Shown: positions 1,700 through 63,452 of the stretch, in pieces
Numbering within the stretch: position 1 is the first letter of the stretch
Layout of the letters: each line of letters opens with the position of its first letter
DNA from: a virus
Taxonomy: Duplodnaviria > Caudoviricetes
Length of the DNA: 64,000 nt
Direction: 5' to 3' (one strand)
Virus record (IMG/VR): IMGVR_UViG_3300008110_007313
Program-made: the position numbers and the translations under genes
The notes under the pieces: model-generated
Seen by the model: the letters and a program-made list of their open reading frames with translations, nothing else
Database searches by the model: none
Told to the model about the DNA's origin: nothing

Positions 1700-2208
1700 T
1701 TTTTGTCTCCCTGTGCTGCACGATTCAGAATGGCCGCTGCATTGTGAGCATCTATCACCGCAGCTGGTACAGGGCAGTTTTCAATGTATTTGATAACTTC
1801 CTCACGCTTGATTCTTTCAGGGCCTTCTACCATTACTTCTTTGGTGTTCCATTTATCAATATACTTGATAATTTCTTCGCCTTTTTCTCGCACCACTCGG
1901 GTTTTTTCTACCACACGAGTTTGCACTTCCACATTGGTCTTGGCACTGCGAGCCTCAGCTTCGGCAACCTTTAGTTCCATTTCGGCCACACGCTGTCGCC
2001 ATTCAGATTCTACTGAATAGCCACCACGTAGGTACACGCCCAGCGCCAACAGCACAATGCCAGCAATCTTGAACGGCAGTTGATACTGCCAAATTACAGG
2101 TATGCGATGCGCAAACAGGCCAGCCACGGCCAAGATCACACCCAGCACAAGTATAGAATTAACTGCCCATAAAATGGCAGTGTCGGGGAGAAAATGTAAG
2201 ATCCACAT
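1696..2208 (-). CDS. i-spanin (Rz-like)
   Basis: N-terminal TM helices, then coiled coil and C-terminal C-x-V-P motif; late TAAATA at 2214-2219. Confidence 0.7.
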   Translation of the reverse strand: MWILHFLPDTAILWAVNSILVLGVILAVAGLFAHRIPVIWQYQLPFKIAGIVLLALGVYLRGGYSVESEWRQRVAEMELKVAEAEARSAKTNVEVQTRVVEKTRVVREKGEEIIKYIDKWNTKEVMVEGPERIKREEVIKYIENCPVPAAVIDAHNAAAILNRAAQGDKK

Positions 2209-2216
2209 GCCTGTAT

Positions 2217-2795
2217 TTAGTAACCAAAATCAAGATTACGTTGCTTTAGCTTTTGCCAGGTCTGTGTGTATGTTGCAAACTCAGTGTGTTGGTACTGTTC
2301 TAAATTTTCTCGCATGAAACTAGAAAAATCATCCTGGCCAGTGTCAATGCAGAACACCTGATCTGCCCACCAATCTACCGTGGTTTGATTGTAGTATTGC
2401 CAGTGATGTTCCAGCGCCATGTTCATGGTATGATCTAACCCATGCTCTAGGATTTCTGGCCGATGCAGGTGTTGAGTCCAGACTTGCCAGCAGCGATTAT
2501 AACTAGGCGCAAAATGACTTTTGATTTTGATAATTTGTCGACCTGGAAAATGCTGAAATAGCAGTTGGGTGTCAAGGCAGTGTGTAAGCTCAATGAGATT
2601 GTGTCTTGACTTCAGTTGAGTTGACTCTTTGGGGTAGGGCCTGGTATCGGGATCCTGGTAGTTGATTTCTGGAGTTGGGTCTGGCCCTGAGTGACTGTGT
2701 GCGTGTTGGTTGTGACGCCATTGTTTTTGCAGAAGATACCTGGCCAGTCGATTGCCCCCACTGCCGGGAAAATAAGCAATTACGCAGGCATTCAT
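2217..2795 (-). CDS. Sulfotransferase-like/P-loop-like protein
   Basis: Start moved to ATG 2795 (ATGA overlap with upstream stop); N-terminal IAYFPGSGGNRL motif. Confidence 0.45.
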   Translation of the reverse strand: MNACVIAYFPGSGGNRLARYLLQKQWRHNQHAHSHSGPDPTPEINYQDPDTRPYPKESTQLKSRHNLIELTHCLDTQLLFQHFPGRQIIKIKSHFAPSYNRCWQVWTQHLHRPEILEHGLDHTMNMALEHHWQYYNQTTVDWWADQVFCIDTGQDDFSSFMRENLEQYQHTEFATYTQTWQKLKQRNLDFGY

Positions 2796-7157: not shown

Positions 7158-8329
7158 AGTCCAGCCAACTCTTTGAGTCTGCGCACTGTTTCGCCCATGG
7201 TACCAGTCCTAGGCTGATCAAACATATCTGCTTGTCTATCAGCTCTGGCACGACTGATGGTAGGCAGCACATCATCGCTGCCAGCAGGCAATTCCACAGG
7301 TTCGTTGTACATATAGGTCACATTAGAATTGGGATCCTTGGTGACCTTGGGCACTCGTGGACCACGGTCCACTGTGGTAGGCAGCGGTTGATCACGCATA
7401 GGAGCAGTCTGAGTTGCAGCTGGTTGACTCTTGGCAGCAGGTTCAACTGGGGGCTTGATTCCAATTGTAGGAGGAGCGTATGTGTTAGTGTTGGCCGGCT
7501 TATTGATTTCTGTGTTGCGTTGATCTTTGTCTTTTTCTCTTTTCTTGCGACTGTCAGATCGGCGTGTTTGTCCAGATCCTGCAAACGCAGAAGGTTCTTT
7601 GTCGGCCTTGGGCAAATCAACCTGGCTTCGACTCACAGGTTCTTTGTTACCGCCCTGGCGCAACTGACGCTCCATGCCATCTATTTCGCGATTGAGTTGA
7701 TTGAGTTCGTTGTCGAGACTGTCATTTTCTTGATCTAGATTGGCGATCTGTTGGCTTTGTTTTTTGCTGAGATCACGTAGGCGATCTAGAGTTTGATCTT
7801 GACGAGCATTGGTTTTGTTCTGTGCACCAAAACTTTGGTCAGTGGTAGTTTGGTTTTCTATTTCGTTGCGTATAAACGCTTCTATGTCAGATCTAGCTGA
7901 CGGATACTTGGCATAGGCCTGACGCAGTGCCACACTGAGTTTGGGGTCTTTTACTCCTGATCTGCTGAGATCAGGTTGTTCTTTTTTTTCGCGTTCAAAC
8001 AGCCCGGCCTGTCCTGCACTCATGTTCACAGGCGTAACATTGAGATTGAGTCGGTCAGCCAAGGCCAAGAACTTGTCGGACCTGCTCATGGTGTTGTACA
8101 CAAAGTCTCGTTTGTCACTCATGTCCTGTAGCTGATTGTAGTGATCAGCCAAGGCATCCACTTCTGGATCGCTGAGTTTGATCACATCGTCGCCAAAGGT
8201 CAGCGTCAAGGTAGCGGCAGTTTTACGCCCTTGATAAAAATCAACCAGCATTTTGAAATTGGCGCCGCCAAGTGCTTTGCTGCCTACGGCTCCGTATTCT
8301 AACAGTGTAACAACGTCTGTGATTTTCAT
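7154..8329 (-). CDS. Putative core/internal head protein with coiled coil
   Basis: MKITDVVTLLE; heptad region; ends RRLKELAGL; TATAAATA 5 nt upstream. Confidence 0.55.
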   Translation of the reverse strand: MKITDVVTLLEYGAVGSKALGGANFKMLVDFYQGRKTAATLTLTFGDDVIKLSDPEVDALADHYNQLQDMSDKRDFVYNTMSRSDKFLALADRLNLNVTPVNMSAGQAGLFEREKKEQPDLSRSGVKDPKLSVALRQAYAKYPSARSDIEAFIRNEIENQTTTDQSFGAQNKTNARQDQTLDRLRDLSKKQSQQIANLDQENDSLDNELNQLNREIDGMERQLRQGGNKEPVSRSQVDLPKADKEPSAFAGSGQTRRSDSRKKREKDKDQRNTEINKPANTNTYAPPTIGIKPPVEPAAKSQPAATQTAPMRDQPLPTTVDRGPRVPKVTKDPNSNVTYMYNEPVELPAGSDDVLPTISRARADRQADMFDQPRTGTMGETVRRLKELAGL

Positions 8330-8333
8330 AATT

Positions 8334-8789
8334 TTATTTATAAGCAGTGCGATTGATGTTCAAGCGTTGCTGAAGTCTTTGTATAGCAGTGTCGGCTTTT
8401 TGTATCAAACTGGCATAGTTGTCTTGATCGGCACCTCGCATGTACAATGCTAAGTCTGTGTCAGCTTCTAGTCCAGGGTTCATGAGTCCGCGTTTTTCGG
8501 CCGCTGTTCGCAGTTTTTCCAGCTGTTGCATTTTGTCAATGGCTGCGTTTACTCCAGACAACTTGGTTTTGAGTTCTGAATAGCTGTATTTGCTATAATC
8601 TGTAGGTGGAGTAGGTGCCGGGCGTCCAGCCTTGGCAGTCATAAATCGTTGAGCCATGTTTTTCTCAAAATCCTGTTGCCAAGCAGCTACGTCTTGATCT
8701 CGTTGTTGTGTGATAGCACCACGAGCCTGTTGCAGAGCAGCCAGGGCTTCAGGTTTGAGTGCTTCTTGTAAAAATTCACTGGCTCTCAT
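8334..8789 (-). CDS. Putative internal head protein
   Basis: MRASEFLQEA, similar to T4 capsid-targeting sequence MKTYQEFIAE. Confidence 0.55.
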   Translation of the reverse strand: MRASEFLQEALKPEALAALQQARGAITQQRDQDVAAWQQDFEKNMAQRFMTAKAGRPAPTPPTDYSKYSYSELKTKLSGVNAAIDKMQQLEKLRTAAEKRGLMNPGLEADTDLALYMRGADQDNYASLIQKADTAIQRLQQRLNINRTAYK

Positions 8790-10510: not shown

Positions 10511-11103
10511 TATATGGCTCCTGGTGCTGCGGGCTGTTGCGGTGTGGCTGCTAGGTTCTGTTGAGCAGTATCTGCTGCTGTATCGCTTTGATTTTCCTGT
10601 TTGTCTAGATCCTGCTCATAGGCTTGATCTAGTTCGTCAAGATCAATTTCTTGGTCTTCCATCTCAATTGATCCAGTCTTGATGTCATTCATCAGACTCT
10701 TGGGCATGATAATTTCTACCAACCATACAGGTTTTTCAACGATCTTGGCTTTTTTAGTGCCAGGTATGTAGTCTGAAGGATCTGTGATGCGAATAGGAAT
10801 TTTAATCATTTTCTTTTGATAGTTGACGTCACAGTCAAAAGGCAACAATCTACGGGCACCACGTGGATCAGGCATGAGTTTTTCGGGCCACATAAATGTA
10901 CAGGCCACACGATATTTTGTGATTTCGGGACCGGCCACAAGCTCGCCAATCTCCCAGTTTTTAAAGGCATACATATCTACTTCGTCCAACACACGCTCAA
11001 AATCTAGTAGCGTGGTAATTGTGCCCTCGCTCATGTAGATATCGCGGATATTGTCGGCGACTTGCCAGTAGTCTTCGTGGTTTTTAAATAGGTCTCGATC
11101 CAT
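10510..11103 (-). CDS. Hypothetical late protein
   Basis: 197 aa globular-looking ORF; TAAATA at 11111-11116. Confidence 0.65.
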   Translation of the reverse strand: MDRDLFKNHEDYWQVADNIRDIYMSEGTITTLLDFERVLDEVDMYAFKNWEIGELVAGPEITKYRVACTFMWPEKLMPDPRGARRLLPFDCDVNYQKKMIKIPIRITDPSDYIPGTKKAKIVEKPVWLVEIIMPKSLMNDIKTGSIEMEDQEIDLDELDQAYEQDLDKQENQSDTAADTAQQNLAATPQQPAAPGAI

Positions 11104-11266
11104 GGTTGTATATTTACCACAACAGGACTCAAGCTGGATTTTGACATCACAGGGTCAACAGCCTAATACTTATGCTGAAAAACCAAAGAAATCTGTCCAC
11201 ATAATTCTCTGATTCACTGTACCGTAAATATCCTTGTCCAACTAACGGACACAAGGAGAAAACACT

Positions 11267-12004
11267 TTGAGTAGAAACCGCGCTGCGAAAGCACAAAACA
11301 AACGTATGGTACAGACACAAGAGAACACTATCAGCTTTAACCAAGCACCTAAAGCGGCACAGCGCCGCATAGACCTGATCCCTCGAACACGAAATCAGGA
11401 ACGCTTGGTGCTGGCTCTTTTGGACGCTGACCAACACATAGTTGTTACCACTGGTCCTGCTGGCACTGGCAAAACGTATCTAGCCATGCAAGCAGCAGTA
11501 AAAGCATTAAGAGAAGGAGATTGCGATCGCATAGTATTAACACGCCCAGCGGTTGGCGTAGAGGGAGAACAACATGGTTTCCTCCCGGGCAATTTAGTTG
11601 CTAAAATGGAACCTTGGACTCGTCCTTTGCTAGACGTCATGCGGGAATACTACCGCCCTCAGGACATTGTAGCCATGATAGAAGATCAGGTTGTGGAAAT
11701 TGCGCCTCTGGCATTCATGCGCGGCCGCACCTTTAAAAACTCGTGGATTATTGCCGACGAAATGCAAAATGCAACTCCGGCACAGGCCAAGATGTTAATG
11801 ACTCGCATTGGAACGAACTCTAAGATTGTGATCACAGGTGATGTTGAGCAAGCTGATCGTAACGCAGACGACAACGGCTTGATGGACCTGGTAACAAGAT
11901 TGCAATCTTTCCCAGTGAACGGTATCACGGTTTGCCCCATGGAAAACCGTGATGTTCAGCGACACAAGATCATAGGAGAAGTGTTACGACTCTATAGTAA
12001 ATAA
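11267..12004 (+). CDS. phoH: PhoH family protein
   Basis: GPAGTGKT, LTRP, GFLPG, PLAFMRGRTF, DEMQN, GDVEQAD; TTG start with SD AAGGAG. Confidence 0.95.
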   Translation: MSRNRAAKAQNKRMVQTQENTISFNQAPKAAQRRIDLIPRTRNQERLVLALLDADQHIVVTTGPAGTGKTYLAMQAAVKALREGDCDRIVLTRPAVGVEGEQHGFLPGNLVAKMEPWTRPLLDVMREYYRPQDIVAMIEDQVVEIAPLAFMRGRTFKNSWIIADEMQNATPAQAKMLMTRIGTNSKIVITGDVEQADRNADDNGLMDLVTRLQSFPVNGITVCPMENRDVQRHKIIGEVLRLYSK

Positions 12005-12009
12005 GGGCC

Positions 12010-12672
12010 ATGCTGGCCCAACTTGCCCACCCTAATTTAATCGTAGTTCACTACAGACCATATCAGGGTGGCAAGTTTTTCATCAACTGCCTTGCTCATC
12101 ACTACAAAGTAATGCCTCAGCTGGATACCAGCTGTTACCTGTCTGGTCAAGATTTCAAAATACAACAAATTCACAACAGTTTGCCCCCGCCTGAACACCT
12201 ACGCAAGTGGGAAAAATTCGAGTTGGGTTGCAGATCTTTTTGGGGCGGTAAGTTGACTGAATTGTTGCAACGTACACAACAACCTAACTCAGTGTCAACT
12301 GAATTGTTGAGTCAATACCGTTGTTTCATAGTCAATCACATGACCAATCCAGAACGCCTTGATCTAATTGATCTGAATCTGCCAATGGCCAGACACATTG
12401 TACTCACCAACGCTGATGAGTTTTGCAAGACGTCAATTGAGAAAAAAGCACCTCTGGACTATGATCCCAAGTTGTCAACAGGATCATTTGAAAGACACAT
12501 GTTTACAAACCGCAATGCATTTTTTCTAGATGTAGATTCTGCATATTCTAACTCAACACAATTGATTACGCAACTGCATCGGTGTTTGATCTGGCTGGGC
12601 GTGGATACTGAACTAGATCCAACAGTATCTCAGTTTATTGATCAATATCGTTGGCTTCATGGCCTACAATAG
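12010..12672 (+). CDS. Sulfotransferase-like/P-loop-like protein
   Basis: VVHYRPYQGGKFFINCL motif resembles 2217..2795; TAAATA 6 nt upstream. Confidence 0.45.
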   Translation: MLAQLAHPNLIVVHYRPYQGGKFFINCLAHHYKVMPQLDTSCYLSGQDFKIQQIHNSLPPPEHLRKWEKFELGCRSFWGGKLTELLQRTQQPNSVSTELLSQYRCFIVNHMTNPERLDLIDLNLPMARHIVLTNADEFCKTSIEKKAPLDYDPKLSTGSFERHMFTNRNAFFLDVDSAYSNSTQLITQLHRCLIWLGVDTELDPTVSQFIDQYRWLHGLQ

Positions 12673-13270: not shown

Positions 13271-13532
13271 TTTTTACTATCTCATAACCGTTTTCGTCAA
13301 ACAGTCGCTTGATGATACTTTCGTAGTGTTGCATGTAGTATTCTACAATGCGGTGGAAATTTTTGGGTACTTGAACACCGCCCATGTGACATTTTTCTAC
13401 CTGGAGTGTTTTAAAGTCCAAGATCACATTGGCAGTTTGCAGGTCTCTTGTTTTTAGCCGTTTGGACACTTGCATGGCTTCGTCTAGTCGGCCATCCGCT
13501 TTGCGGTAATAGGTTAGAATAAAATATCTCAT
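13215..13532 (-). CDS. Hypothetical protein
   Basis: ORF 7 nt downstream of a consensus sigma70 -10 box. Confidence 0.65.
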   Translation of the reverse strand: MRYFILTYYRKADGRLDEAMQVSKRLKTRDLQTANVILDFKTLQVEKCHMGGVQVPKNFHRIVEYYMQHYESIIKRLFDENGYEIVKNEETKSESEVQPNANNPS

Positions 13533-13604
13533 AACGTTATTGTAACAATTTTCTAATAAAATGTCAATGCTTCTACTAAATTTAGAGCATTATAAATCAA
13601 CAGT

Positions 13605-18119: not shown

Positions 18120-18349
18120 TTGATGTTGATTTTGTCTGAATGAGCCATGGCACCAGATTTTTCTGATGCTTCGCGCAGTCGTTGTTGATACTTGCTTTGG
18201 TAGCTTTCCAAAGCCATTCGAATTTGATTGCAGAGATGTCCGTTGCCGGTTTGCGCGGCTATAGACAGTTTTCGGTTTAGTTCGCTGATCTTGTCAGTGA
18301 GCTGTTCTTCGCTCAGTGAATCAAGGCTGCCAATCAAAGGATGTTCCAT
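18116..18349 (-). CDS. Hypothetical coiled-coil protein
   Basis: ORF 7 nt downstream of a sigma70 -10 box. Confidence 0.65.
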   Translation of the reverse strand: MEHPLIGSLDSLSEEQLTDKISELNRKLSIAAQTGNGHLCNQIRMALESYQSKYQQRLREASEKSGAMAHSDKINIK

Positions 18350-18395
18350 AGAGTAATTTTACTACAGAACACCCAGCAATGTCAACACAAATTGG

Positions 18396-28592: not shown

Positions 28593-28952
28593 ATGTATTA
28601 TATTTGCGTAGAAAATGACCGTGTAACCGGTGTACTAAACTATGAACCCAACGTTCCGTCTTCGGTCACAGTTGTAGTGATATCAGACGAAGATCATGCC
28701 AAACTTGATCAAAGAACCCATTACTTTGACATACCCACATCAAGTATACAGCCTTACCCCCAGAGCGAACTTGACAAACTGGCTGCTAGAAACGCCAGCC
28801 TAGAACATCAGAAATTTTTGAACAATACTGACTGGAAAGTCATGCGCCACATAAGAGAAAAGGCCCTGGGCATACCCACAAGCCTTAGTAATGCAGAATA
28901 CTTAGATCTTGAACTAGAGCGTGAACGTCGCGCCGCTGCAATCACACACTGA
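28593..28952 (+). CDS. Tail fibre assembly chaperone-like protein
   Basis: Follows the fibre gene; [20 protein letters not shown]-terminal pattern. Confidence 0.65.
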
Positions 28953-29262
28953 AGCTAGAACCGCATCCACAGGTGCTTTGTGCCTGTGGATTGTCAATCA
29001 CAAAGCTGGATCCCATGTCCGATTCGTCCCAGCGAATATTGGCATTTTGTAAGTACTGCATGCTCATAGCGTCTACCAACACAGTAACATCGTCGTAGGC
29101 AAAATCAAAATCGTCTTCGTTTTTGGCTTCGTCTAGAGTGAAGCCATATTGGAATCCTGAACACCCACCACCTTGCACAAACACACGTAGTTTTGCATTG
29201 GGGTTGTTCTCTTCTGCCAAGATGTCTTTCAACTTGGTAACGGCACTCGTGTCTAATTTCAT
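28942..29262 (-). CDS. erpA: A-type Fe-S cluster carrier (ErpA/IscA/HesB)
   Basis: [32 protein letters not shown]. Confidence 0.92.
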
Positions 29263-29810
29263 TATAGTCTTTCGTTACAAACGTCCCAGTCAATGATCTT
29301 CCAGATATTGTCTAAGTAACGTTCTTTGTCTGATTGATAATCCAGGGCCCAGGCGTGTTCCCACCAGTCTACTAGCACACAGATGTCGGTGCGCACAGCA
29401 TGATTGGCAATGGTCTTGATATCCCCGCCTGTGCTCAAGTAAACCCAACCTGATCCTTGGATCTTCATTGCGGCCTGTTTGAATTCTTCTTTGAAATCTT
29501 CCCAGGTTTTGAATTTTTCTTCTATCAACGCGAGTACTGCACCACGCGGTCTGTTGGCGCCTTTGGGAGCCCGAAGCTGAGGGAAAAACTTATTGTGTAA
29601 AAAACTGCCAGCACGATTAAAATCCGCATTGCCTTCTCCTGCATTGTAGCGTTTGGCATAGCCCTTGGCCAAATGCTCAAAATGATAGTCTATGGTTTCC
29701 TTGCTCATTACGGGTTCAAGATCTTTGACACCATAAGGTAAAGGGGTAGTTTCCAGTTTTGCCGGACGAGTGCTTGCTTCTACAAGATTGATGTGGTCAC
29801 GTAGTTCCAT
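29262..29810 (-). CDS. sodA: Fe/Mn superoxide dismutase, Mn-type signature
   Basis: [34 protein letters not shown]; extra N-terminal [12 protein letters not shown]. Confidence 0.88.
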
Positions 29811-29817
29811 GTTGTAT

Positions 29818-30036
29818 TTATTTGCGACGGGTGATACGCCCTTTGGTAAGATCGTAGGGTGAGAATTCCATTTCTACTCGATCTCCCAACAACACCTTGA
29901 TGTTGTTCTTACGCATACGCCCAGATAAGTGAGCTACAACCAAGTTTGGTAAATTGTCTAATTTGATGCGGAACATGGCGGCGGGCAGAACTTCTTCTAC
30001 TCGACCTTCCATGTTAATAATATCTTCTTTTGCCAT
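29818..30036 (-). CDS. infA: Translation initiation factor IF-1
   Basis: MAKEDII..G.V.E.LP..F..KL....[34 protein letters not shown]. Confidence 0.95.
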
Positions 30037-30046
30037 AAGCAATTAC

Positions 30047-30448
30047 TTATTTGAACACCAATTCTGCTGTGATCTTCTTTAACCGATCCATACGGAAACT
30101 GCGCCAGGATTGTGCTTCTAAATCAAACACTTTGATCACAGCAGGATCAGTTTCCTTGCGGGGTTTTTTGGACTCTAGAACAATGCCATCCACGGGACCC
30201 GGTGTGGGCTTTTGTGGCTGTGGCGGAATCAAGTCCCAGTTCAAAGTGCATCGCATGTCACGATCTGTGCCATCTGCTTTGGTAAATTGTACTGTGATTT
30301 CTTGCTTGTTTAGCAAACTTGTAACCCAGTCACGCATGATGGTCTTGTTGACGTCATCTGCTTCTTGGTACTGTGTGCCTGGTACTCCTTTGAGCAAGCG
30401 CACAACTTCTTGTTTTTCCCACATATCGGCATTCATAATTTCATCCAT
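30047..30448 (-). CDS. WYL/SH3-like protein of T4-type phages
   Basis: VQFTKADGTDRDMRCTL..VFDLE..WRSFRMD; start adjusted. Confidence 0.6.
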   Translation of the reverse strand: MDEIMNADMWEKQEVVRLLKGVPGTQYQEADDVNKTIMRDWVTSLLNKQEITVQFTKADGTDRDMRCTLNWDLIPPQPQKPTPGPVDGIVLESKKPRKETDPAVIKVFDLEAQSWRSFRMDRLKKITAELVFK

Positions 30449-31568: not shown

Positions 31569-31961
31569 TCAATAAAACAAAGGTTCTACGGTGCGCTCAT
31601 TTTTCAGCGCCATCATGATTTCGTCTTGCTCAGAATACACCAAGTCCGAAAATTCTAAATGTAAACGACGTTGGGCATCAGTCATCTTGAGCCAGGCACG
31701 GATCTGAGCTCGACTACCCCAGGCTTCTGCTGGCATGCAGTTGATCATCCACTTGGTAAGATTTTTCAAAGCTTCCACTGTGTTGGCAGGATGACTATGA
31801 AGGATAGCTGTGGCTTCATTGGCATACCAGGCCATGAAAAACCCACCAGGCTCCCAACCATGAGTCAGATAGTTGTACATGGGGTCAGCAAAATCCTTGT
31901 CCACTTGCCAGTGGTGCAAGGATTTCATGAGCCGGTTTTGACTGTATTTTGTTAGTTCCAT
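31569..31961 (-). CDS. Hypothetical protein
   Basis: Start moved to MELTKY, 7 nt after the -10 box; GWEPGGF..EAWGS. Confidence 0.6.
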   Translation of the reverse strand: MELTKYSQNRLMKSLHHWQVDKDFADPMYNYLTHGWEPGGFFMAWYANEATAILHSHPANTVEALKNLTKWMINCMPAEAWGSRAQIRAWLKMTDAQRRLHLEFSDLVYSEQDEIMMALKNERTVEPLFY

Positions 31962-32007
31962 GCTGTTATTATAGCACAGACGCAATTTTGAGTCAATATA
32001 ATACTTT

Positions 32008-32304: not shown

Positions 32305-32879
32305 GTGCGATCTCCGTAGAAAATATGACGTCCAATTTTTTCAATTCGGGGCAGTTTCCAGCCCGGGCTAACATAGTCAGCGTGATAGAAAAGAGCATGC
32401 TTTAAACTGGGCAGTCGGAATCCCTCCAACAGCACCTTCTTGGCTACTTCTTCGCTTTCACGCCACAGGGGCGGATGTACCGCTTTCACTTTGTGGTTGC
32501 CTTCGCAATACCACGAAAATTGACATACTACTTTTTCGTAGAATATGTTCTTTTGATAAATCACGCCACAAACACCTGTACCAAAGCGGCCAGATTCCAC
32601 GCGGTTCATAGTAACTTGGGCAACAGCCACTTTGCCTTCAAAAGGCTCACTTGCGGCTTCCCAGTAGATGTTGCGAGTCAGGCACTCCAATTGCTTGGTG
32701 CGCTCTGCGGCTGTAACATAGCCCTCGGGCATGCCAGCTCTTGTTTCGCGTAGACTGTCAAGGCGTGTATTACAAACTGCTATCACACATCCGATCACAG
32801 CAACAAAGCCCAAAGTTTTGAGACTCCGCGACAGCCACGACGTCAAGTCGATTTTGTTTAAGGTTAGGTTTGTTTCCAT
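32301..32879 (-). CDS. Cell wall hydrolase, SleB/Hydrolase_2 family
   Basis: CLTRNIYWEA..EGKVAVAQVTMNRV..CQFSW..LFYHADYV.PGW..IGRHIFY; N-terminal TM. Confidence 0.92.
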   Translation of the reverse strand: METNLTLNKIDLTSWLSRSLKTLGFVAVIGCVIAVCNTRLDSLRETRAGMPEGYVTAAERTKQLECLTRNIYWEAASEPFEGKVAVAQVTMNRVESGRFGTGVCGVIYQKNIFYEKVVCQFSWYCEGNHKVKAVHPPLWRESEEVAKKVLLEGFRLPSLKHALFYHADYVSPGWKLPRIEKIGRHIFYGDRT

Positions 32880-32975
32880 AGGCGTTTACTTACTCAGTTG
32901 GATTGAATTTCCTGTAAAGACCGGGCCAAAATGAAGCATTTTTGCCATTAAGTGGGCAGTTATCCCACTTAATGT

Positions 32976-35192: not shown

Positions 35193-35570
35193 TTACATGG
35201 GGGCGTCTTCTACAGCGGCCAGGATGTCACTGGCAGTGACGTTCTTGGTAGGCTTCTTAGCAGGAGCCTTGGTAGCCTTGGTGGCCTTGACACGGACTTC
35301 ACCTTTCTTGGCAATCTTGGCCTTCTCAGCCAGTTTGTTAGCCACAGCAAAGCCAGCATCACCTTCGGTGATACCTTGTTCAGTGAGATACTGGAGAGCC
35401 TCCAGCTTGGTCATCTCGCGGGGCAGTTCAACCAGGTTGATGTCAGTGCATCCGGCCTTGTTGAGGATCTTGACACGAGCCACCAGGTCGTTAGCAAAAC
35501 GGGCCTTGACGGTGCCGTCAGCGTTCTTGGCTGTACCAGCCACGGTAAAAGTTTTTTCAGTTGCGGACAT
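35193..35570 (-). CDS. Hypothetical basic protein with K/A-rich tail
   Basis: Own promoter, SD and terminator. Confidence 0.7.
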   Translation of the reverse strand: MSATEKTFTVAGTAKNADGTVKARFANDLVARVKILNKAGCTDINLVELPREMTKLEALQYLTEQGITEGDAGFAVANKLAEKAKIAKKGEVRVKATKATKAPAKKPTKNVTASDILAAVEDAPM

Positions 35571-35701
35571 AATGTTGCCTTTCAAAGTTGCCTATTAAGT
35601 TAAAATTCATGTTGCTTTTTACACAACATATCAATATTATAGCAAAAGAGCATTTATTGGTCAAGCCTTTTTTGCAATAATTTTGATTCTTTTTGCCCAA
35701 A

Positions 35702-38009: not shown

Positions 38010-38286
38010 CGCGGTCCATGATGTACTCAAAAAGCACAAATTTTGCACGATTTAACAGTTGGCGCTGGGCTTCGATAGTTGCAAAACTGGGCTGTTCGTA
38101 GGCCATCATCTCTTGTGCATCGCTCATCATGCTGGCCACAATCATAGCAGGACCAGAAATTTTGAATGTAATGCTTGATTCGATGCTGTCACGCAGGTCT
38201 GCTTCGGTGCAACCGTACATGTTGATCTGACGTTGACGTTGCATGTCTTGACCAACTGCGGCGCGAATTGATGCTGTTGCTGTCAT
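37999..38286 (-). CDS. Hypothetical early protein
   Basis: Follows cassette copy 2. Confidence 0.65.
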   Translation of the reverse strand: MTATASIRAAVGQDMQRQRQINMYGCTEADLRDSIESSITFKISGPAMIVASMMSDAQEMMAYEQPSFATIEAQRQLLNRAKFVLFEYIMDRENG

Positions 38287-38292
38287 TTCTGG

Positions 38293-38352
38293 CTCCTTTT
38301 TAATTACTATACAAGTATTATAGCAAATCGGGAATATTGGGTCAACCGTTTT
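38293..38352 (-). repeat. 60-bp promoter+RBS cassette, copy 2
   Basis: Direct sequence comparison with copies 1 and 3. Confidence 0.9.
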
Positions 38353-38388: not shown

Positions 38389-38622
38389 TTATACAACAAG
38401 GTATTTGTACGCAAGACCCGCAAGTCCTGTGAGCAACATCACACCGTTTGTGACAATTAAACTGGCTTCGCGCCAGCGGATGCTGACTATGAGCCAAATT
38501 AACCCGCCAACTGCCAGGGTTATTGGACCCTCGGGATAGTAGCCCAGAGAGTTGATTGCAGTTCCTGCAATAAGGATCACAGTTGCGATCCACTTTAGAT
38601 ACCAGTTTAAATCTTTTTTCAT
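38389..38622 (-). CDS. Small three-TM membrane protein
   Basis: LKWIATVILIAG..YP.G..LW..VS.RWRE.SLIVTN; 7 nt after the -10 box. Confidence 0.65.
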   Translation of the reverse strand: MKKDLNWYLKWIATVILIAGTAINSLGYYPEGPITLAVGGLIWLIVSIRWREASLIVTNGVMLLTGLAGLAYKYLVV

Positions 38623-38653
38623 ACCCTAATTATAGCAAATCGGGAATATTTGG

Positions 38654-39076
38654 TCAACCAAATGCTGTATCGCGGTATTCTAGGCAGTTTTCTAATTGAT
38701 CTAGAGGTATGTTGTGAGCACGATAGCCTTCGCAGACCAGATTGTAGTAGCCACGAGTAGGCTCTGAATCTTCATGTCCGGGTTGCATGCGGTACACCAG
38801 AGCATGCAACGTTCTTGCGCCATACACAACCGAACTGACCACGCGGTCATAGTAAAAAGGATAACCTTCCAACTGGTCCAGAGATTTTAGATGTTGGTCT
38901 GTGATTTCCCACAACACCCCGTCTACAAAACTGTCGCCACAGGGCTCTACATCTGCATGGCGTGCAAATCTAAAACTGTGATTGACCAAGCGAGCATGGC
39001 CCAAGGACTTTGCGCCTGGGCATCGTTGAAACATTTCCTTGGGGTTGGTATTCATACCATATGCGAAATACAACAT
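38654..39076 (-). CDS. Gamma-glutamylcyclotransferase (AIG2-like)
   Basis: YFAYGMN..VDGVLWEI..LDQLEGYP. Confidence 0.85.
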   Translation of the reverse strand: MLYFAYGMNTNPKEMFQRCPGAKSLGHARLVNHSFRFARHADVEPCGDSFVDGVLWEITDQHLKSLDQLEGYPFYYDRVVSSVVYGARTLHALVYRMQPGHEDSEPTRGYYNLVCEGYRAHNIPLDQLENCLEYRDTAFG

Positions 39077-39132: not shown

Positions 39133-41094
39133 TCAACCAACAGGCCTTGACCAGTTGTCGCGTTTTTCCCAGCCCAGTCTAAATCCATAGTGAAAACCGT
39201 CTAGGTCCGGGTATCCGTTGGGACCACGAGCTTTGAGATCATACTCAAACTTGGCATGCCAATCTCCGCGATGATTGATTTTGAACCAGATGTCTGCGTT
39301 AAATTCATCGCCTTCGTGAAACACTCGTACAGGCCCAAATTCTGCAAGATCTTCTGCATGATCAAAACGCAGTTTGAGTTCAAACTCTCCAACTGCCAAC
39401 CACAGTATTCTCAACAATGGCCATATTTCATTGACCAAGGTGTCGGCCACGGGATTGATTGTGGTCTTAATGATCTGATAATCAAAGTCTTCTTGATACG
39501 GAATCAAAGGACGAATATTAGCCGGAGAATAAGCCAAGGTATAATGATCCTCAACGCCGGGACGTTCAATGTGTTGTCCGTATTTGATACCCTGTTCATG
39601 TCGACGCATGTGATTCATCAAGATGTTCACACTTTTGAGTCGCACCAGTCTATGCGCCGCGGTATTGGTGTGGTCCTCAGTGGTCCATAGTGCACCAAAG
39701 TGTCCGTGGCTGATTCCAAACTTCTCACGCTCTTGACTCAATGGTGTATCAGGCAACACATTACAGGTCTGCACAGCATAGCCAGCAATATTGGTTCTGC
39801 GGGTACGCCACATCAAGGTCATGGTATCTGCAAAATCTTTGGCAGTTTCGCCAGGGAAGCCCACAAACCAGTTGGTAAATGCACTGATACCAACTTTGGT
39901 TATGTCATTGAGATTTTGTTCTACTGATTCTCGTTTGACATTCTTTTTCATGATGTCCAACACTCGCTGACTGCCTGACTCCACACCAAAGTTCAACATG
40001 TTGCAGCCGCTGGCCTTGAGATCTCGAAAGTAATCTATATCCATACGATCATCGTTGCGACAGTATCCTACCCAATGCAGGTCATGCATACCGCGTTCAA
40101 CTACGCCGCGAGCAAAGGCCCGTAGTTCTTTGAGATTACCATTGACCAGGCTGTCAATGAACCAGATAGTACGAACACCAAAAGTTTTATATTGATACTC
40201 AATTTCGTCCACAATGTTGCCAGCCAGCCTGCCACGATATCGCCAGAATGTTGTTTCCGAGCAGAACTGGCACTTGGCCACACATCCGCGACTGATTTCA
40301 GAACCCACTGAAGTGCCTAGTCGATACAGTTCCAGGGGCAGATCGCTGTAGTCGGGCCATGGCATAGAATCTAGATCAATGCGCTGTTCTTTGGGATGAC
40401 GCAGTATGTGATCTGGGATGGTTTCGCCAGCTTCGACCTTTTCTAGAATGTCCAAAAAGATCAGTTCGCCTTCGCCTACCACAATGTGATCGTACAGTTC
40501 GGGACGTTTGACTTTTTCCTGTATGGCCTGTGATCCTCCGGCCAAGAACACAGCGTCGGGCAGGCGTTCACGCAGGCGTTCTACTACCCAGTTGGCACAG
40601 TTGTTGTTGGTGTAGTACAGGCTGAACCCAACTACATCAGGAGCAAATTCTACAATCTGATCAATGTACTTGAGCAACAGAGGTTCGATAACCGGGTGTA
40701 CATCTTGCCAGTATGGTTCTTCTTTGTCCCACTTCCAATCAGTGTAGGGACTCCATAGTTCCTCGCCCAGCTCACTGTAACACAACACATTGAGGTCGTA
40801 TGCACAGGCCGCAAAACCTGAGGCTTTGGCCAGGGCCGTGAGTCGTGCAATATTGTAAGGTGCAATATCCACTGACCAAAATGGAGTCATTACCATGGCC
40901 ACCCGTGTTTGACGAGTGGTTGGGTGAATAATTACCGAACTTAGATTTTTTTGCGGACGACCTCGACTCAGTTCTTCTACCACACTCAACATCTGTGTGT
41001 GTGGACAGTCTGACTGAATCGCTGGAGTACTAGACTTCAGTGCCGGTTGAATCGCAAAGACTTTTTTGTTGATAGAGTCTCTTGCTGTTGCCAT
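39133..41094 (-). CDS. Cobalamin-binding radical SAM enzyme (class B)
   Basis: PDVVGFSLY and LAGG (B12 domain), SRGCVAKCQFC, FGVESGSQRVL, VGFPGET. Confidence 0.9.
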   Translation of the reverse strand: MATARDSINKKVFAIQPALKSSTPAIQSDCPHTQMLSVVEELSRGRPQKNLSSVIIHPTTRQTRVAMVMTPFWSVDIAPYNIARLTALAKASGFAACAYDLNVLCYSELGEELWSPYTDWKWDKEEPYWQDVHPVIEPLLLKYIDQIVEFAPDVVGFSLYYTNNNCANWVVERLRERLPDAVFLAGGSQAIQEKVKRPELYDHIVVGEGELIFLDILEKVEAGETIPDHILRHPKEQRIDLDSMPWPDYSDLPLELYRLGTSVGSEISRGCVAKCQFCSETTFWRYRGRLAGNIVDEIEYQYKTFGVRTIWFIDSLVNGNLKELRAFARGVVERGMHDLHWVGYCRNDDRMDIDYFRDLKASGCNMLNFGVESGSQRVLDIMKKNVKRESVEQNLNDITKVGISAFTNWFVGFPGETAKDFADTMTLMWRTRRTNIAGYAVQTCNVLPDTPLSQEREKFGISHGHFGALWTTEDHTNTAAHRLVRLKSVNILMNHMRRHEQGIKYGQHIERPGVEDHYTLAYSPANIRPLIPYQEDFDYQIIKTTINPVADTLVNEIWPLLRILWLAVGEFELKLRFDHAEDLAEFGPVRVFHEGDEFNADIWFKINHRGDWHAKFEYDLKARGPNGYPDLDGFHYGFRLGWEKRDNWSRPVG

Positions 41095-41329
41095 GCGGAT
41101 ATTTACCGGCGTGCGTTAGCTCTTTTTTGAATTCCTTGTTGACATAGTAGTCAATCAGTCTACGTTGAATATGTTGCAACAAATCACCGTGATCGTCGGC
41201 CACAATAAATCTTACAGGGCAATGTCCCCATGTTTGTGTGCGCTGAAACTCTGCAAACCACTGACGGTGATTTCGGTCATCTGCGTTGAACGCAATCCAA
41301 GGTCTGTGATGAAAATTAAGAATGCTCAT
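41030..41329 (-). CDS. Hypothetical protein
   Basis: RPWIAF..HRQWF..WG.CPVRF; tail overlaps the radical SAM start. Confidence 0.6.
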   Translation of the reverse strand: MSILNFHHRPWIAFNADDRNHRQWFAEFQRTQTWGHCPVRFIVADDHGDLLQHIQRRLIDYYVNKEFKKELTHAGKYPHGNSKRLYQQKSLCDSTGTEV

Positions 41330-53893: not shown

Positions 53894-54547
53894 TTACTTT
53901 GGTACAGTTGACCAAATAACAATAGCTCGTTTGCATTCAACCCCGTGACTGGGGAAATCGTCGCTGGTATGAAACTTGCGTCGATTGGTTGCAAACAGGT
54001 CTCCCCGGCGCCAAGGAAAAACAGCTTCAGGAGTGAGCCATTGTAGGTCTAAGCGATCCACATGTGTAAGGTATCGCTGATGAAATTCGTCGTCTATGGC
54101 ATGCGGCTGTGGTTGAATTTCGTTTACCCAAACATCCAAAGTCTTGATGGTTTCGTGTTGTTGTTCAAACACAATGGTGTTGCTTTCGTAATTGTCCAAG
54201 GGTATAATAAACGTCCAAGCAGCCAGATCAGAACCCGCGGGATCAAAACTCGCACTCATCACGTCTGAATGTATGCCGTAGGGAACATAGGCATTGAGAA
54301 TGTGTGTGGTTGCTAACTGTACATTTTGTCCAAAATGTTGATGAATTCTGGGAACAAGAATGTCTGCTACTGCCTGATACTTTTCCATCCATAAAAAGAA
54401 ACTGTGAGTGACTGCATTATGACCAGCGTTGGTGCCAACATCAATGAACGTTGTTTCAGTTGTTCGATGTTTTTCCACAGTGGATTCAATAATGGAAATC
54501 TCAGCGTCGCTGAGAAAATTTGGGATAGTACGTGATTCAAAGTCCAT
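53894..54547 (-). CDS. Fe(II)/2OG oxygenase-like protein
   Basis: IHSD..TFIIPL..FHTS (HxD..H); TAAATA 7 nt upstream. Confidence 0.65.
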   Translation of the reverse strand: MDFESRTIPNFLSDAEISIIESTVEKHRTTETTFIDVGTNAGHNAVTHSFFLWMEKYQAVADILVPRIHQHFGQNVQLATTHILNAYVPYGIHSDVMSASFDPAGSDLAAWTFIIPLDNYESNTIVFEQQHETIKTLDVWVNEIQPQPHAIDDEFHQRYLTHVDRLDLQWLTPEAVFPWRRGDLFATNRRKFHTSDDFPSHGVECKRAIVIWSTVPK

Positions 54548-54622
54548 AGTACCATATTTAATTGTAATTTTTAAACGGCGCAGATAAATAACCGTGTACA
54601 AACACATAGAACGGCGTGAAAT

Positions 54623-55054
54623 ATGTTACAAATAATAACATCTCTTAGTGATGACCTTGAGGCATTGATCCGGGACGATCCTGTTCGACCTGAGATTCCT
54701 GTCAGCGACCGAGTTAATCAGAACTCAAGAATCTACATGCTCAAAGAAGGGGACAAGACGCAGGCCGTGACCTGTGTGAAGTTCTTGAACACAATTCCCG
54801 AGGCAGTGGATGACTTGGTTGGTTTGGTTGGGAGTGCCACAACTGCGGTATTTTACACTATTTGGTCGTATTCGGCAGGTGCTGGACGCTCGCTGATTCA
54901 AGAGGCCCAGAAGTCGATTGAAGCTGAGTTTCCCGGAATCGATACCTACGTTACCTTGAGTCCAAAGACCGAGATGGCTCGTCGCTTCCATCTAAAGAAT
55001 GGTGCTGGTGTGTACCGCGAAAATTCTACCACTGTGAATTACATCTATAAGTAA
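54623..55054 (+). CDS. Hypothetical protein, GNAT-like
   Basis: AVFYTIWSY..GAGR.LI..VTLSP..FHLKNGA. Confidence 0.6.
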   Translation: MLQIITSLSDDLEALIRDDPVRPEIPVSDRVNQNSRIYMLKEGDKTQAVTCVKFLNTIPEAVDDLVGLVGSATTAVFYTIWSYSAGAGRSLIQEAQKSIEAEFPGIDTYVTLSPKTEMARRFHLKNGAGVYRENSTTVNYIYK

Positions 55055-61405: not shown

Positions 61406-62250
61406 GAGCACAAGAATTTGCAACTGAAGCACAAGAACTAGATGAGATAGTACGCCTGGGTGCTGCTGGGTTCAGTGGTGGTAAAGGATATCTCAACTCC
61501 TATGGCAGAGAAAAGTCAGTGCGTGAACTTCCTGGTGGCAGTGGACTATTGTATAGCGTGACCAAAGACAGTGGTGATTTCATAATCAAAATGTGGGATC
61601 CTGTCAACAAAGGTGAATTTCAACCAGCACCTATAGGTCCTCGTCCGTCATATTATACTAGACGTGAATGGCAAAGCAGAATTGAATACCTGCAACAACG
61701 AGATGTTCGACGCAAGGCAGAGTTTGATCGAGCTCCTGGTAACCTGATTGGACAACTTACAGTTGATAGCGTGGGTCGCAGTTTCCCCATGCCTGGTGCT
61801 GTGCAAGTAGGAACAATCACTGTGGATGAAGACTATCGCGGTGGCGGTATTGCCAAAGCATTGTATGGCATAGTACTGACCATAATGAAACGTCCCTTAC
61901 TGGCGGGCACCAGTCAAACGCCCGGCGGTCGTAAAAACTGGCTGAGCCTGAGTCAGATCCCTGGCGTGCAAATGAAAGGATATTTCAGCATAGATGACGA
62001 TGAACTAGATACTGATCCAAGAATTAACAACCCAAGAAGTTCTAAACGAGCGGATCAGAACATTGATACCATCATGGGCAAGCTGGGCGGAGAATATATA
62101 GGACAAGGCTATGATGGACATTATTTTGCCTTTGATGTCAAACCAAACACCTCCAAGCAAGAACTTGAATCATACATAAACACAAATCTAAGCCGAGTCT
62201 ACGGCGGTGGTTATGGTTCGGGTGGCCTATACGCTGTTTGGACTGGCTGA
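61402..62250 (+). CDS. Putative virion-packaged GNAT acetyltransferase
   Basis: [27 protein letters not shown] (acetyl-CoA motif A); QTPGGRKNW. Confidence 0.65.
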   Translation: MRAQEFATEAQELDEIVRLGAAGFSGGKGYLNSYGREKSVRELPGGSGLLYSVTKDSGDFIIKMWDPVNKGEFQPAPIGPRPSYYTRREWQSRIEYLQQRDVRRKAEFDRAPGNLIGQLTVDSVGRSFPMPGAVQVGTITVDEDYRGGGIAKALYGIVLTIMKRPLLAGTSQTPGGRKNWLSLSQIPGVQMKGYFSIDDDELDTDPRINNPRSSKRADQNIDTIMGKLGGEYIGQGYDGHYFAFDVKPNTSKQELESYINTNLSRVYGGGYGSGGLYAVWTG

Positions 62251-62252
62251 GC

Positions 62253-62825
62253 CTAGCGAGACAACTGGCTGATGTGGTCACAGATACCTAGTTTGAGTGC
62301 TTCTTCGGCACTCAAGTAAACATCATGTGGGGGCAATAGGTACTGTTTGATTTCGTCTTCACTCAGTCCGGTACAACTCACATAGTGATTGACCATGCGT
62401 GTTTGTGTGAGTCCAAACTCTTTCATTGTGGCCAACAGTTCATGATGTTTACCATCACTGCCCCAGGCATACTGATGACTCATGATTGACGTGTTGGGAG
62501 TAAGTGTTCTGCGCCCTGCACTTCCTGCCAAAAAGATCAGCAATCCTGCTGATGCAATCTGTCCCAGACCCACTGTTTTGATAGCTATGTTGGAACTGCG
62601 CATCACATCAATCAAGGCAAATGCGGCACTCATGTCTCCACCTTCGCTACAGATCATCAACAGTAGTTCTTTTTTCTTTTTCTTGGTCACAAAGTTTTCG
62701 TACAAAATCCATTCTACTATGGGCGCGATACTGTCTTGTGTGACTTCGTCCATGAACACATACATGCCGTTGTCATGCAGTGCTTCACTGTGGTTGGTTT
62801 CTGGTACGTTGGTGTCTTGAGCCAT
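62253..62825 (-). CDS. ClpP-like protease (paralogue 2)
   Basis: ICSEGG, GQIASAG, MSHQ, DVYLSAEEA. Confidence 0.85.
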   Translation of the reverse strand: MAQDTNVPETNHSEALHDNGMYVFMDEVTQDSIAPIVEWILYENFVTKKKKKELLLMICSEGGDMSAAFALIDVMRSSNIAIKTVGLGQIASAGLLIFLAGSAGRRTLTPNTSIMSHQYAWGSDGKHHELLATMKEFGLTQTRMVNHYVSCTGLSEDEIKQYLLPPHDVYLSAEEALKLGICDHISQLSR

Positions 62826-62840
62826 GTTTTATAAAAGAAA

Positions 62841-62862
62841 AAAGCAGCCCGGAGGCTGCTTC
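62841..62862 (-). terminator. Intrinsic terminator overlapping a late promoter
   Basis: aagcagcc-tccg-ggctgctt followed by TTTTCTTTT on the minus strand. Confidence 0.8.
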
Positions 62863-62876
62863 TATTTATGGGCAGT

Positions 62877-63452
62877 TTATTCAGTGCGTTTGCCTTGTGT
62901 GTCAAGTTCTTTGAAAGCCGCATCTGACTGTCGCTGTACTTGATTTTGTGCACGAATTTGATCACGGCGTTGTTGTATTTGATTGGCAGTGCCTGTGGGC
63001 AAAGCAACCAACACATAACTACGGAATCTAGCGCCTTCGGCCAATCGTTTTACTTCTACAATTTCAGCACCTGTTATGTCCACGGTACGACACATTGATC
63101 GAATTGCAACCGAGCTATTTTCCACACTTTGTTCGCCTACGTCAGCACGGAATAGCTTGGAGTTTTTGTCTACTTCTCCACCAGCGGCCATGCAAATTTT
63201 ACCAAAAGCTACTGTTTTAGCCTTTTCGTCAGCCATGGACAAATCTGCACTGACCGCACTACCGTTGGCATAAACAGCGGCGTTGGATTTGGGCAATTCA
63301 GTCATCCACTTAGGTGCCTTGTCGATAGCTCGTTCAGCATATTGCTCACGCTTCTGCGTTTCTTCGTAGGCCCTGCGTTCATACGTTTCTTTGGGAGCGG
63401 AACTGCAAGCAGAGAGAGCAGCCACAGCAATAAGTGTAATAAAATGTTTCAT
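62877..63452 (-). CDS. Lipoprotein (LPP20-like)
   Basis: Lipobox LSAC; PKWM..Y..G. Confidence 0.7.
   Translation of the reverse strand: MKHFITLIAVAALSACSSAPKETYERRAYEETQKREQYAERAIDKAPKWMTELPKSNAAVYANGSAVSADLSMADEKAKTVAFGKICMAAGGEVDKNSKLFRADVGEQSVENSSVAIRSMCRTVDITGAEIVEVKRLAEGARFRSYVLVALPTGTANQIQQRRDQIRAQNQVQRQSDAAFKELDTQGKRTE

Follow-up and report, generated by a model that had tools for sequence, protein, structure and literature searches.

Start codons set a few nucleotides behind late-type boxes and sigma70 promoters in an uncultured freshwater jumbo phage that encodes IF-1

How does a phage gene start when its promoter leaves no room for a ribosome-binding site, and does an initiation factor encoded beside such a gene have a part in it? 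Both questions are raised by a 64,000-nucleotide (nt) stretch of viral DNA (IMG/VR record IMGVR_UViG_3300008110_007313; Duplodnaviria, Caudoviricetes), hereafter the window, in which infA, the gene for translation initiation factor 1 (IF-1), is followed by sod, a superoxide dismutase-like gene with the hexamer TAAATA directly before its ATG. A preliminary description of the window proposed that the phage runs a leaderless translation program and supplies IF-1 to favor leaderless mRNAs over those of its host. Here, we examine the promoter–ATG junctions in the window and its relatives, the probable nature of the TAAATA box, and the relation of both to IF-1.

Results

Start codons close to promoters exceed chance expectation

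The seven sites at which TAAATA had been said to lie 4 to 7 nt before an ATG (2208, 8329, 11103, 12010, 29810, 41094, and 54547) are all present, as are TAAGTA 7 nt before the infA ATG (30049-30044) and sigma70 −10 boxes ahead of the ATGs at 13532, 18349, 31961, and 38622, whose A is the seventh base after the hexamer. The open reading frames (ORFs) opened by the seven TAAATA-adjacent ATGs span 170 to 653 codons. In dinucleotide shuffles of the window, 2.58 ± 1.40 matches to TAAATAN{4,7}ATG were expected, and the seven observed were reached in 0 of 100 shuffles. Seven of the 27 TAAATA copies in the window sit 4 to 7 nt before a long ORF, compared with 0 to 4 of the 14 to 91 copies of control hexamers of the same composition. 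When no motif was specified beforehand, TAAATA came out as the most enriched hexamer (58-fold) at 3 to 8 nt ahead of the first ATG in the window's long ORFs. The bases upstream of this core vary, and the full octamer TATAAATA is found at only one of the seven sites (8329). The four sigma70 cases are near-consensus (TTGACx, 17–18 nt, TAnAAT, then exactly 6 nt to the ATG), and the full sigma70-N6-ATG pattern occurs five times in the window against 0.00 expected; four of the matches open ORFs of 77 to 130 codons, and one opens a mini-ORF of 9 codons. These results confirm that promoter-adjacent start codons in the window are a real pattern, far above chance.

With spacers of 4 to 8 nt, the starts behind the boxes have no Shine–Dalgarno (SD) sequence and no room for one. 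An SD-like 4-mer stands beside TAAATA in none of the seven cases in the window and in 2 of 31 in the reference relative introduced below. Start classes were called in both genomes by simple rules of our own, without a trained gene finder; for the window, they gave 51 SD-led, 8 late-box, 5 sigma70-adjacent (one doubtful), and 31 other starts, most of the last overlapping the preceding gene. About 12 near-identical promoters in the window carry a leader of 25 to 32 nt with a canonical AAGGAG site, so that the genes lacking an SD form a distinct class and give no sign of a host that ignores SD sequences.

Five or more of the early promoters (TTGACC-17-TATAAT) share a near-identical 30-nt leader, beginning ACTTGTATAGTAATTAAAAAGGAG, before unrelated small genes. 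A further consensus sigma70 promoter (35627-35664, minus strand) has its −10 box 6 nt before the ATG of the 9-codon ORF, which lies 59 nt upstream of an SD-led gene starting at 35570 and may be a leaderless mini-ORF inside a 5′ leader. No tRNA genes were found in the window.

The layout is conserved among uncultured relatives

A megablast search with 6 kb of the window returned no match among cultured and deposited phages. IMG/VR holds 269 relatives of the window, uncultured freshwater phages with contigs of up to 364 kb. As a reference relative, we used G001 (320 kb, estimated 92% complete), which has about 80% nucleotide identity to the window in shared parts. It has 61 to 62 proteins in common with PA5oct or Phosso and 11 to 12 with T4 or the first 320 kb of LR756511. 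The window stems from an uncultured jumbo phage of fresh water that falls within the T4-related PA5oct/Phosso/CBB supergroup.

Among ORFs of at least 80 codons in G001, TAAATA-to-ATG distances gather at 4 nt (11 cases), 5 nt (8), 6 nt (4), 7 nt (5), and 8 nt (3), over a background of about one per bin, with a second hump at 17 to 28 nt, there with SD sites. TAAGTA-N5-ATG is found seven times, and TAAGTA has no distant class; TATAAT has a close class at 6 nt (6 cases) and a distant one at 30 nt (10 cases). About half of the gene-proximal TAAATA copies lie 4 to 8 nt before an ATG, with the mode at 4 to 5. When hexamers ending 3 to 8 nt before the first ATG of ORFs of at least 100 codons were ranked without a motif in mind, TAAATA came third in G001 (25 cases, 47-fold), and the remaining top hexamers were all SD variants. 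The start classes of G001 number 210 SD-led, 40 late-box, 13 sigma70-adjacent, and 92 other. Strong AAGGAG sites stand on most early and many late genes. What survives of the proposed leaderless translation program is thus a subset of genes with the promoter fused to the start and no room for an SD; at about 13 to 15% of genes, with most of the others SD-led, it does not extend to the phage's translation as a whole.

TAA[AG]TA stands 4 to 7 nt before an in-frame sod ATG in all 65 distinct relatives (N5 in 40, N4 in 19), and the box is kept while the spacer letters vary, also at loci whose upstream gene is not infA. Relatives of the promoter at 38622 likewise have the 6-nt spacing (5 nt in one) with different spacer letters.

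The triplet following the box in G001 is ATG in 40 cases versus GTG in 5 and TTG in 2; the non-start controls ATT and ATC score 6 and 4. Of the 210 SD-led genes in our own gene calls, 46 begin with GTG or TTG. The first 42 nt of the late-box class have a mean minimum free energy of −2.88 versus −4.50 kcal/mol for the SD-led class (Mann–Whitney p = 2e-4). Judged by these properties of the sequence, the promoter-adjacent genes probably give leaderless or near-leaderless mRNAs.

The box has the setting of a late promoter

In G001, a divergent upstream neighbor is found at 16 of 40 late-box starts versus 21 of 210 SD-led starts. In three divergent pairs (152084/152113, 205515/205539, and 182775/182824), the start codons are separated by only 28, 23, and 48 nt, and this space holds two boxes that face outwards; those at 205515/205539 directly adjoin. 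Near 40719 (minus strand), an intrinsic terminator hairpin ends in a T-run, and TAAGTA-N5-ATG comes no more than about 10 nt after it; at 313398 (minus strand), a T-run precedes TAAATA-N8-ATG. Both places look like a terminator, a promoter, and a start codon packed into about 45 nt. The same TAAATA hexamer lies 17 to 45 nt upstream of SD-led genes in this clade, Phosso, CBB, and XaC1, which is the position expected of a late promoter, and we therefore read the box as a promoter.

Features of T4-type late promoters are found here: the A/T-rich, −10-like core TAAATA/TAAGTA is conserved, and there is no conserved −35 element. G001 encodes a sigma factor of the gp55 family (phrog_12791, 1.6e-74; phrog_234, the T4 gp55 family, 4e-24) whose closest cultured homologs are those of PA5oct-like phages, Phosso, 121Q-like phages, CBB, and XaC1. 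Its gene (61987-62979, minus strand) is a 331-codon open frame with a long N-terminal extension, versus 185 aa in T4. In the cryo-electron microscopy structure of gp55, the adenines of the T4 late box occupy pockets at −12, −9, and −8 (PMC7892883). T4 late promoters, which work with the gp55 sigma, gp33, and the gp45 clamp, accordingly have TATAAATA at −13 to −6, so that +1 falls on the A of the ATG when the spacer is 5 nt. With sigma70 geometry, 6 intervening nt do the same.

IF-1 and its locus

Sequence comparison identifies infA as a genuine, conserved IF-1 gene. Its product matches Pfam PF01176 over residues 8-71 with a score of 70.8 bits, where the cut-off is 30.2, and aligns end to end with solved bacterial IF-1s, including chains from ribosome complexes, at E values of 1e-21 to 1e-17. 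The gene is found in 78 of 80 related loci; in the window, it belongs to the same-strand run WYL_2-infA-sod-erpA (Table 1). Conservation was counted over 61 phage sequences, one from the window and 60 from distinct relatives. Residues G11, L17, P18, F22, S38, G39, M41, R42, I46, L49, G51, D52, V54, P60, Y61, D62, L63, G66, R67, and R71 are kept in at least 95%, and R23 (90%), E57 (92%), and I68 (93%) are largely kept. The clade has fixed the changes Y44N, R46K, and aromatic70R (the aromatic residue before the last Arg). In its NGH loop, one residue is inserted and the loop His is lost; H35 is kept in 34%. The C-terminus RITRRK, to which the preliminary description had drawn attention, is real and, from an alignment of phage IF-1 sequences, clade-specific. 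The nearest bacterial IF-1s are 59 to 66% identical and come from alphaproteobacteria, gammaproteobacteria, and cyanobacteria; with matches spread over several phyla, they single out no donor or host.

One conserved gene shows two start architectures within the clade: infA begins with an ATG behind TAAGTA or with an SD-led TTG or GTG. Of 63 distinct relatives, 36 have TAAGTA or TAAATA 4 to 9 nt ahead of infA (TAAGTA-N7 in 24); the other 27 have no box, and several of these combine an AAAGGA-type SD with TTG or GTG as start codon. Among the sigma70 promoters upstream of infA, the closest from which transcription could run on into the gene is that at 31959..31996, and terminator prediction gave none on the minus strand between 31996 and 29262. 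infA would thus be within reach of read-through from sigma70 promoters upstream as well as of transcription from its own late-type box. G001 also encodes the ribosomal protein bS21 (287934-288092, minus strand). infA probably encodes a functional IF-1. Most likely, this protein tops up an initiation factor that is limiting during takeover, in a general way and alongside the phage bS21; a function specific to leaderless mRNAs is improbable.

In sod, the ATG at 29810 is the earliest possible start in the ORF. The encoded protein has an N-terminal extension of about 20 residues (29750-29810, minus strand) ahead of the usual LPY/LEP fold start, and the sequence of this extension differs among relatives.

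Table 1 Promoter–start junctions and neighboring genes in the 64-kb window
Feature	Position	Strand	Support or remark
infA, IF-1, 72 aa	29818..30036	-	PF01176 profile match
TAAGTA box 7 nt before infA ATG	30044..30049	-	TAA of box is the stop codon of the WYL_2 gene
TAAATA late-type box 4 nt before sod ATG	29815..29820	-	First three bases are the infA stop
sod, Fe/Mn superoxide dismutase-like, predicted leaderless	29262..29810	-	Pfam Sod_Fe_C 1.6e-22, Sod_Fe_N 1.9e-07
A-type Fe-S carrier (IscA/ErpA-like)	28942..29262	-	Pfam Fe-S_biosyn 7.1e-17; start abuts sod stop
WYL_2 (Sm-like SH3) gene upstream of infA, tentative start codon	30047..30487	-	PF10902 1.9e-11
TAAATA-N5-ATG, 170-aa membrane-like gene	2206..2219	-	
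(TA)TAAATA-N5-ATG, 391-aa gene	8327..8340	-	
TAAATA-N7-ATG, 197-aa gene	11101..11116	-	Heads minus-strand unit; upstream neighbor divergent
TAAATA-N6-ATG, 220-aa gene	11998..12012	+	
TAAATA-N5-ATG, 653-aa gene	41092..41105	-	After intergenic gap of ~230 nt
TAAATA-N7-ATG, 217-aa gene	54545..54560	-	Divergent from gene starting at 54623
TAAGTA-N7-ATG, 192-aa gene	32877..32892	-	Box kept in 18/32 distinct relatives
TTGACA-17-TACAAT-6-ATG, 105-aa early gene, predicted leaderless	13530..13567	-	
TTGACA-18-TAAAAT-6-ATG, 77-aa early gene, predicted leaderless	18347..18385	-	
TTGACT-17-TATAAT-6-ATG, 130-aa gene, predicted leaderless	31959..31996	-	
TTGACC-17-TATAAT-6-ATG, 77-aa membrane-protein gene, predicted leaderless	38620..38657	-	
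Contrast: same promoter type with 30-nt leader and AAGGAG SD	38284..38345	-	One of ~12 cassettes
Shared promoter-plus-leader cassettes (first base after −10 hexamer)	37353, 37973, 38316, 45549, 56893	-	

Related layouts in other phages and mRNAs

Comparison of the pattern with a reversed control proved too insensitive (49 versus 34 in LR756511) and was replaced by ORF-aware distance histograms. In T4, PA5oct, CBB, XaC1, TH47, cyanophage S-SCSM1, and Phosso, the boxes lie 13 to 45 nt from the ATG, and none lies at 3 to 8 nt. With T4, the clade shares a gp55-family sigma and A/T boxes that lack a −35 element, stand before many genes, and are often back to back. It differs in that the T4 box stands 13 to 30 nt before the ATG (peak at 28), with the SD between and none closer than 13 nt, whereas the core is only TAAATA or TAAGTA here and half of its gene-proximal copies belong to the close class.

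Two other phages have a close class. In the uncultured, distantly related LR756511 (595 kb), which also carries IF-1, the box stands 4 nt (9 cases) or 5 nt (7 cases) before the ATG; no gp55 homolog was found in its first 320 kb. TAGATA, TATATA, and TACATA are likewise enriched 3 to 8 nt before its gene starts, which suggests that it uses a looser TAnATA box. HTVC008M, a cultured T4-like pelagimyophage, has a (T/C)ATAAATA-N5-ATG class without SD (12 cases at N5; the class makes up 16 of 170 long ORFs). It differs from the clade in its genome of 147 kb, its lack of IF-1, and a spacing of almost only N5. Another uncultured genome, LR756508 (484 kb), carries IF-1 and shows no enrichment of SD-type hexamers before gene starts, suggesting a host that does not use SD sequences.

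The nearest precedent lies with the Thermus phages phiYS40 and P23-45, whose middle and late transcripts are leaderless, with start codons immediately after the promoters of many later genes (PMC3594737). Leaderless genes abound in their own host group, Deinococcus-Thermus (PMC12340547). In these phages, the host sigma reads the promoters and the initiation factors are host-encoded, whereas the present clade has strong AAGGAG SD sites, makes use of a gp55-type late box as well, shows the layout at only about 15% of its genes, and encodes its own IF-1, for which no bias is known. The sigma70 cases recall the lambda cI mRNA made from PRM and other sigma70 leaderless mRNAs, in which a −10 hexamer plus 6 nt puts +1 on the A of an obligatory AUG and a 5′ end without structure is favored; the "−10 region adjacent to ORFs" of Deinococcus-Thermus is a comparable layout (PMC12340547). 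Here, in contrast, a single lytic phage repeats the layout at several of its early genes, beside the near-identical promoters with SD leaders.

Huge phages encode IF1, IF3, bS21, and S1, which have been proposed to redirect host translation, so that phage IF-1 is already known from them (Al-Shayeb et al. 2020, PMC7162821). The clade resembles them in its phage-encoded IF-1 and bS21, and LR756511 and LR756508 share the former; that work did not connect IF1 with leaderless transcripts, and the IF-1 of this clade has its own fixed substitutions. The omics paper on PA5oct reports sigma70-like motifs only and does not mention leaderless transcripts, and a differential RNA sequencing study of phiKZ found no leaderless phage transcripts. 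Our literature search found no description of gp55-type promoters fused to start codons.

Some apparent counterparts were set aside. "Acinetobacter phage MD-2021a" (CAKLQH020000005.1) has its infA among leuB, leuD, truA, and ansA and looks like a bacterial contig; Listeria, Staphylococcus, and Enterococcus "phage" records with IF-1 matches were left out of the comparison as suspected bacterial sequence. A group of phages carrying bS21 reportedly infects Bacteroidetes. The idea that these bS21 phages (Chen et al. 2022) belong to the same clade was dropped, as the phage studied here has sigma70 consensus promoters and AAGGAG sites.

Discussion

We think it likely, though well short of certain, that gp55-type and sigma70 promoters fused to the AUG give rise to leaderless mRNAs in this phage and that IF-1 acts as a general supplement. 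TAAATA, with its variant TAAGTA, would be the core of a late promoter read by a gp55-type phage sigma. Transcription would start on the AUG or within about 3 nt of it, by known polymerase geometry, and such mRNAs would be translated from their 5′-terminal AUG without an SD sequence; the remaining genes would depend on strong AAGGAG sites or on overlap with the preceding gene. The sequences show the geometry of the junctions, its statistics and conservation, and the identities of IF-1, the sigma, and bS21; where transcription starts, how the mRNAs are translated, and what IF-1 does are inferred.

Several findings weigh against this reading. The start points are placed by geometry alone, and the 4-nt spacer, the commonest or second commonest, puts +1 on the U of the AUG under T4 geometry, which implies either flexible start-site choice or a local geometry off by 1 nt. 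The evidence for a gp55 homolog comes from the relative G001 rather than from the window's own genome. In G001, 13 of the 40 late-adjacent starts lie 0 to 15 nt after a gene on the same strand, with its stop in or near the box, and could be served by termination–reinitiation. In four lake RNA libraries, contigs span both the start of infA and its junction with sod, which would mean that read-through transcripts also exist, if the contigs derive from RNA and not from DNA carry-over; these metatranscriptome contigs of relatives' infA-sod genes show neither 5′ ends, strand, nor level. Only small shares of the 1.2-kb infA-sod stretch were matched in lake metatranscriptomes, and no RNA sequencing runs matching a 10-kb stretch were listed.

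The bridging contigs and the gene-following starts speak for the rival view that TAAATA-N4-8-ATG is a translation signal on transcripts started upstream, either a stop–restart site for 70S scanning or an A/U-rich, SD-independent ribosome-binding site. The stop of the upstream gene lies in or beside the box at 3 of 7 window sites as well as at the 13 in G001, and IF1 strongly stimulates 70S scanning (PMC9031893), so that IF-1 could then matter for coupling. Yet 40% of late-box sites have a divergent upstream neighbor and others follow a terminator, and the divergent intergenic spaces of 23 to 48 nt must contain the promoters. Nor does a translation signal sit well with the TAAATA copies that precede SD-led genes by 17 to 45 nt in this clade as well as in Phosso, CBB, and XaC1, which are placed as for a late promoter, or with the sigma70 cases, where a complete −35/−10 promoter keeps a fixed 6-nt spacing; we regard it as quite unlikely. 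Our start calls came from simple rules rather than a trained gene finder, and the starts might therefore be mis-assigned, with the true ones downstream behind ordinary ribosome-binding sites and the proximity of box and ATG incidental. At sod, however, the conserved LPY/LEP motif lies downstream of the ATG at 29810 with no other start codon ahead of it, and the ATG stands at its distance of 4 to 5 nt from the box in 62 of 65 relatives. Only ATG, and no other triplet, is enriched at box distance, and the signal persists when only the first ATG of each ORF of at least 100 codons is used. Mis-assignment is very improbable.

A different alternative concerns IF-1 and builds on the second half of the original proposal: with its altered C-terminus and loop, it would retune the ribosomes of the host late in infection and let leaderless phage mRNAs win out over the SD-led mRNAs of the host. 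In favor of this, kinship is only distant between the two IF-1-carrying lineages that show the promoter–ATG signature (12 proteins are common to G001 and the first 320 kb of LR756511, versus 61 to 62 shared with PA5oct and Phosso), the clade IF-1 is changed at otherwise conserved positions (the three substitutions and the one-residue loop insertion), and a late-type box precedes infA in most relatives. Leaderless translation is stimulated by IF1 in vitro (PMC9031893), and phiYS40, with its leaderless middle and late mRNAs, provides a precedent: IF2 is raised and IF3 lowered there, a shift proposed to favor leaderless messages (PMC3594737). Against it, IF1 stimulates leaderless, 70S-scanning, and SD-led initiation alike and is needed for the last as well; the factors known to bias the choice among them are IF2 and IF3, and IF1 has no known selectivity for leaderless mRNAs (PMC9031893). 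Across 11 phages, co-occurrence of IF-1 and the signature shows no association (one-sided Fisher p ~0.28, computed by hand). Both are present in this clade and LR756511 and both absent from T4, PA5oct, CBB, XaC1, TH47, and S-SCSM1, but Phosso and LR756508 have IF-1 without the signature, and HTVC008M has the signature, with its 12 cases at N5, and no IF-1. Phosso combines IF-1 with the same late-sigma family, yet its TAAATA boxes lie 20 to 34 nt from the ATG with SD sites, and its infA has a TTG start 31 nt after such a box; the infA of LR756511 is SD-led. Moreover, 85% of the phage's own genes fall outside the leaderless type, and infA itself lacks a box in the 27 relatives noted above, some of them with an SD. 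With counterexamples in both directions among the phages compared, the claim that IF-1 is supplied to favor leaderless mRNAs over those of the host found no support, and we consider such retuning unlikely. Unlikely, too, is a broader version in which the phage has both SD-led mRNAs and 5′-AUG mRNAs from sigma70 and gp55-type promoters and its diverged IF-1, perhaps with bS21, shifts host ribosomes to 70S-type initiation late in infection, to the benefit of phage cistrons that are leaderless or closely coupled.

Among the phages compared, IF-1 carriage is not tied to the promoter–ATG layout. Annotation is concerned as well: gene finders that look for an SD will put promoter-adjacent starts in the wrong place. 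Leaderless mRNAs are commonly thought to be poorly translated where SD sites are the norm. If leaderless mRNAs from promoters fused to the AUG are what these phages make, giant phages that otherwise rely on strong SD sites would use leaderless translation systematically, and the question would be how leaderless messages, including those of genes of 500 to 1800 codons, get translated well enough.

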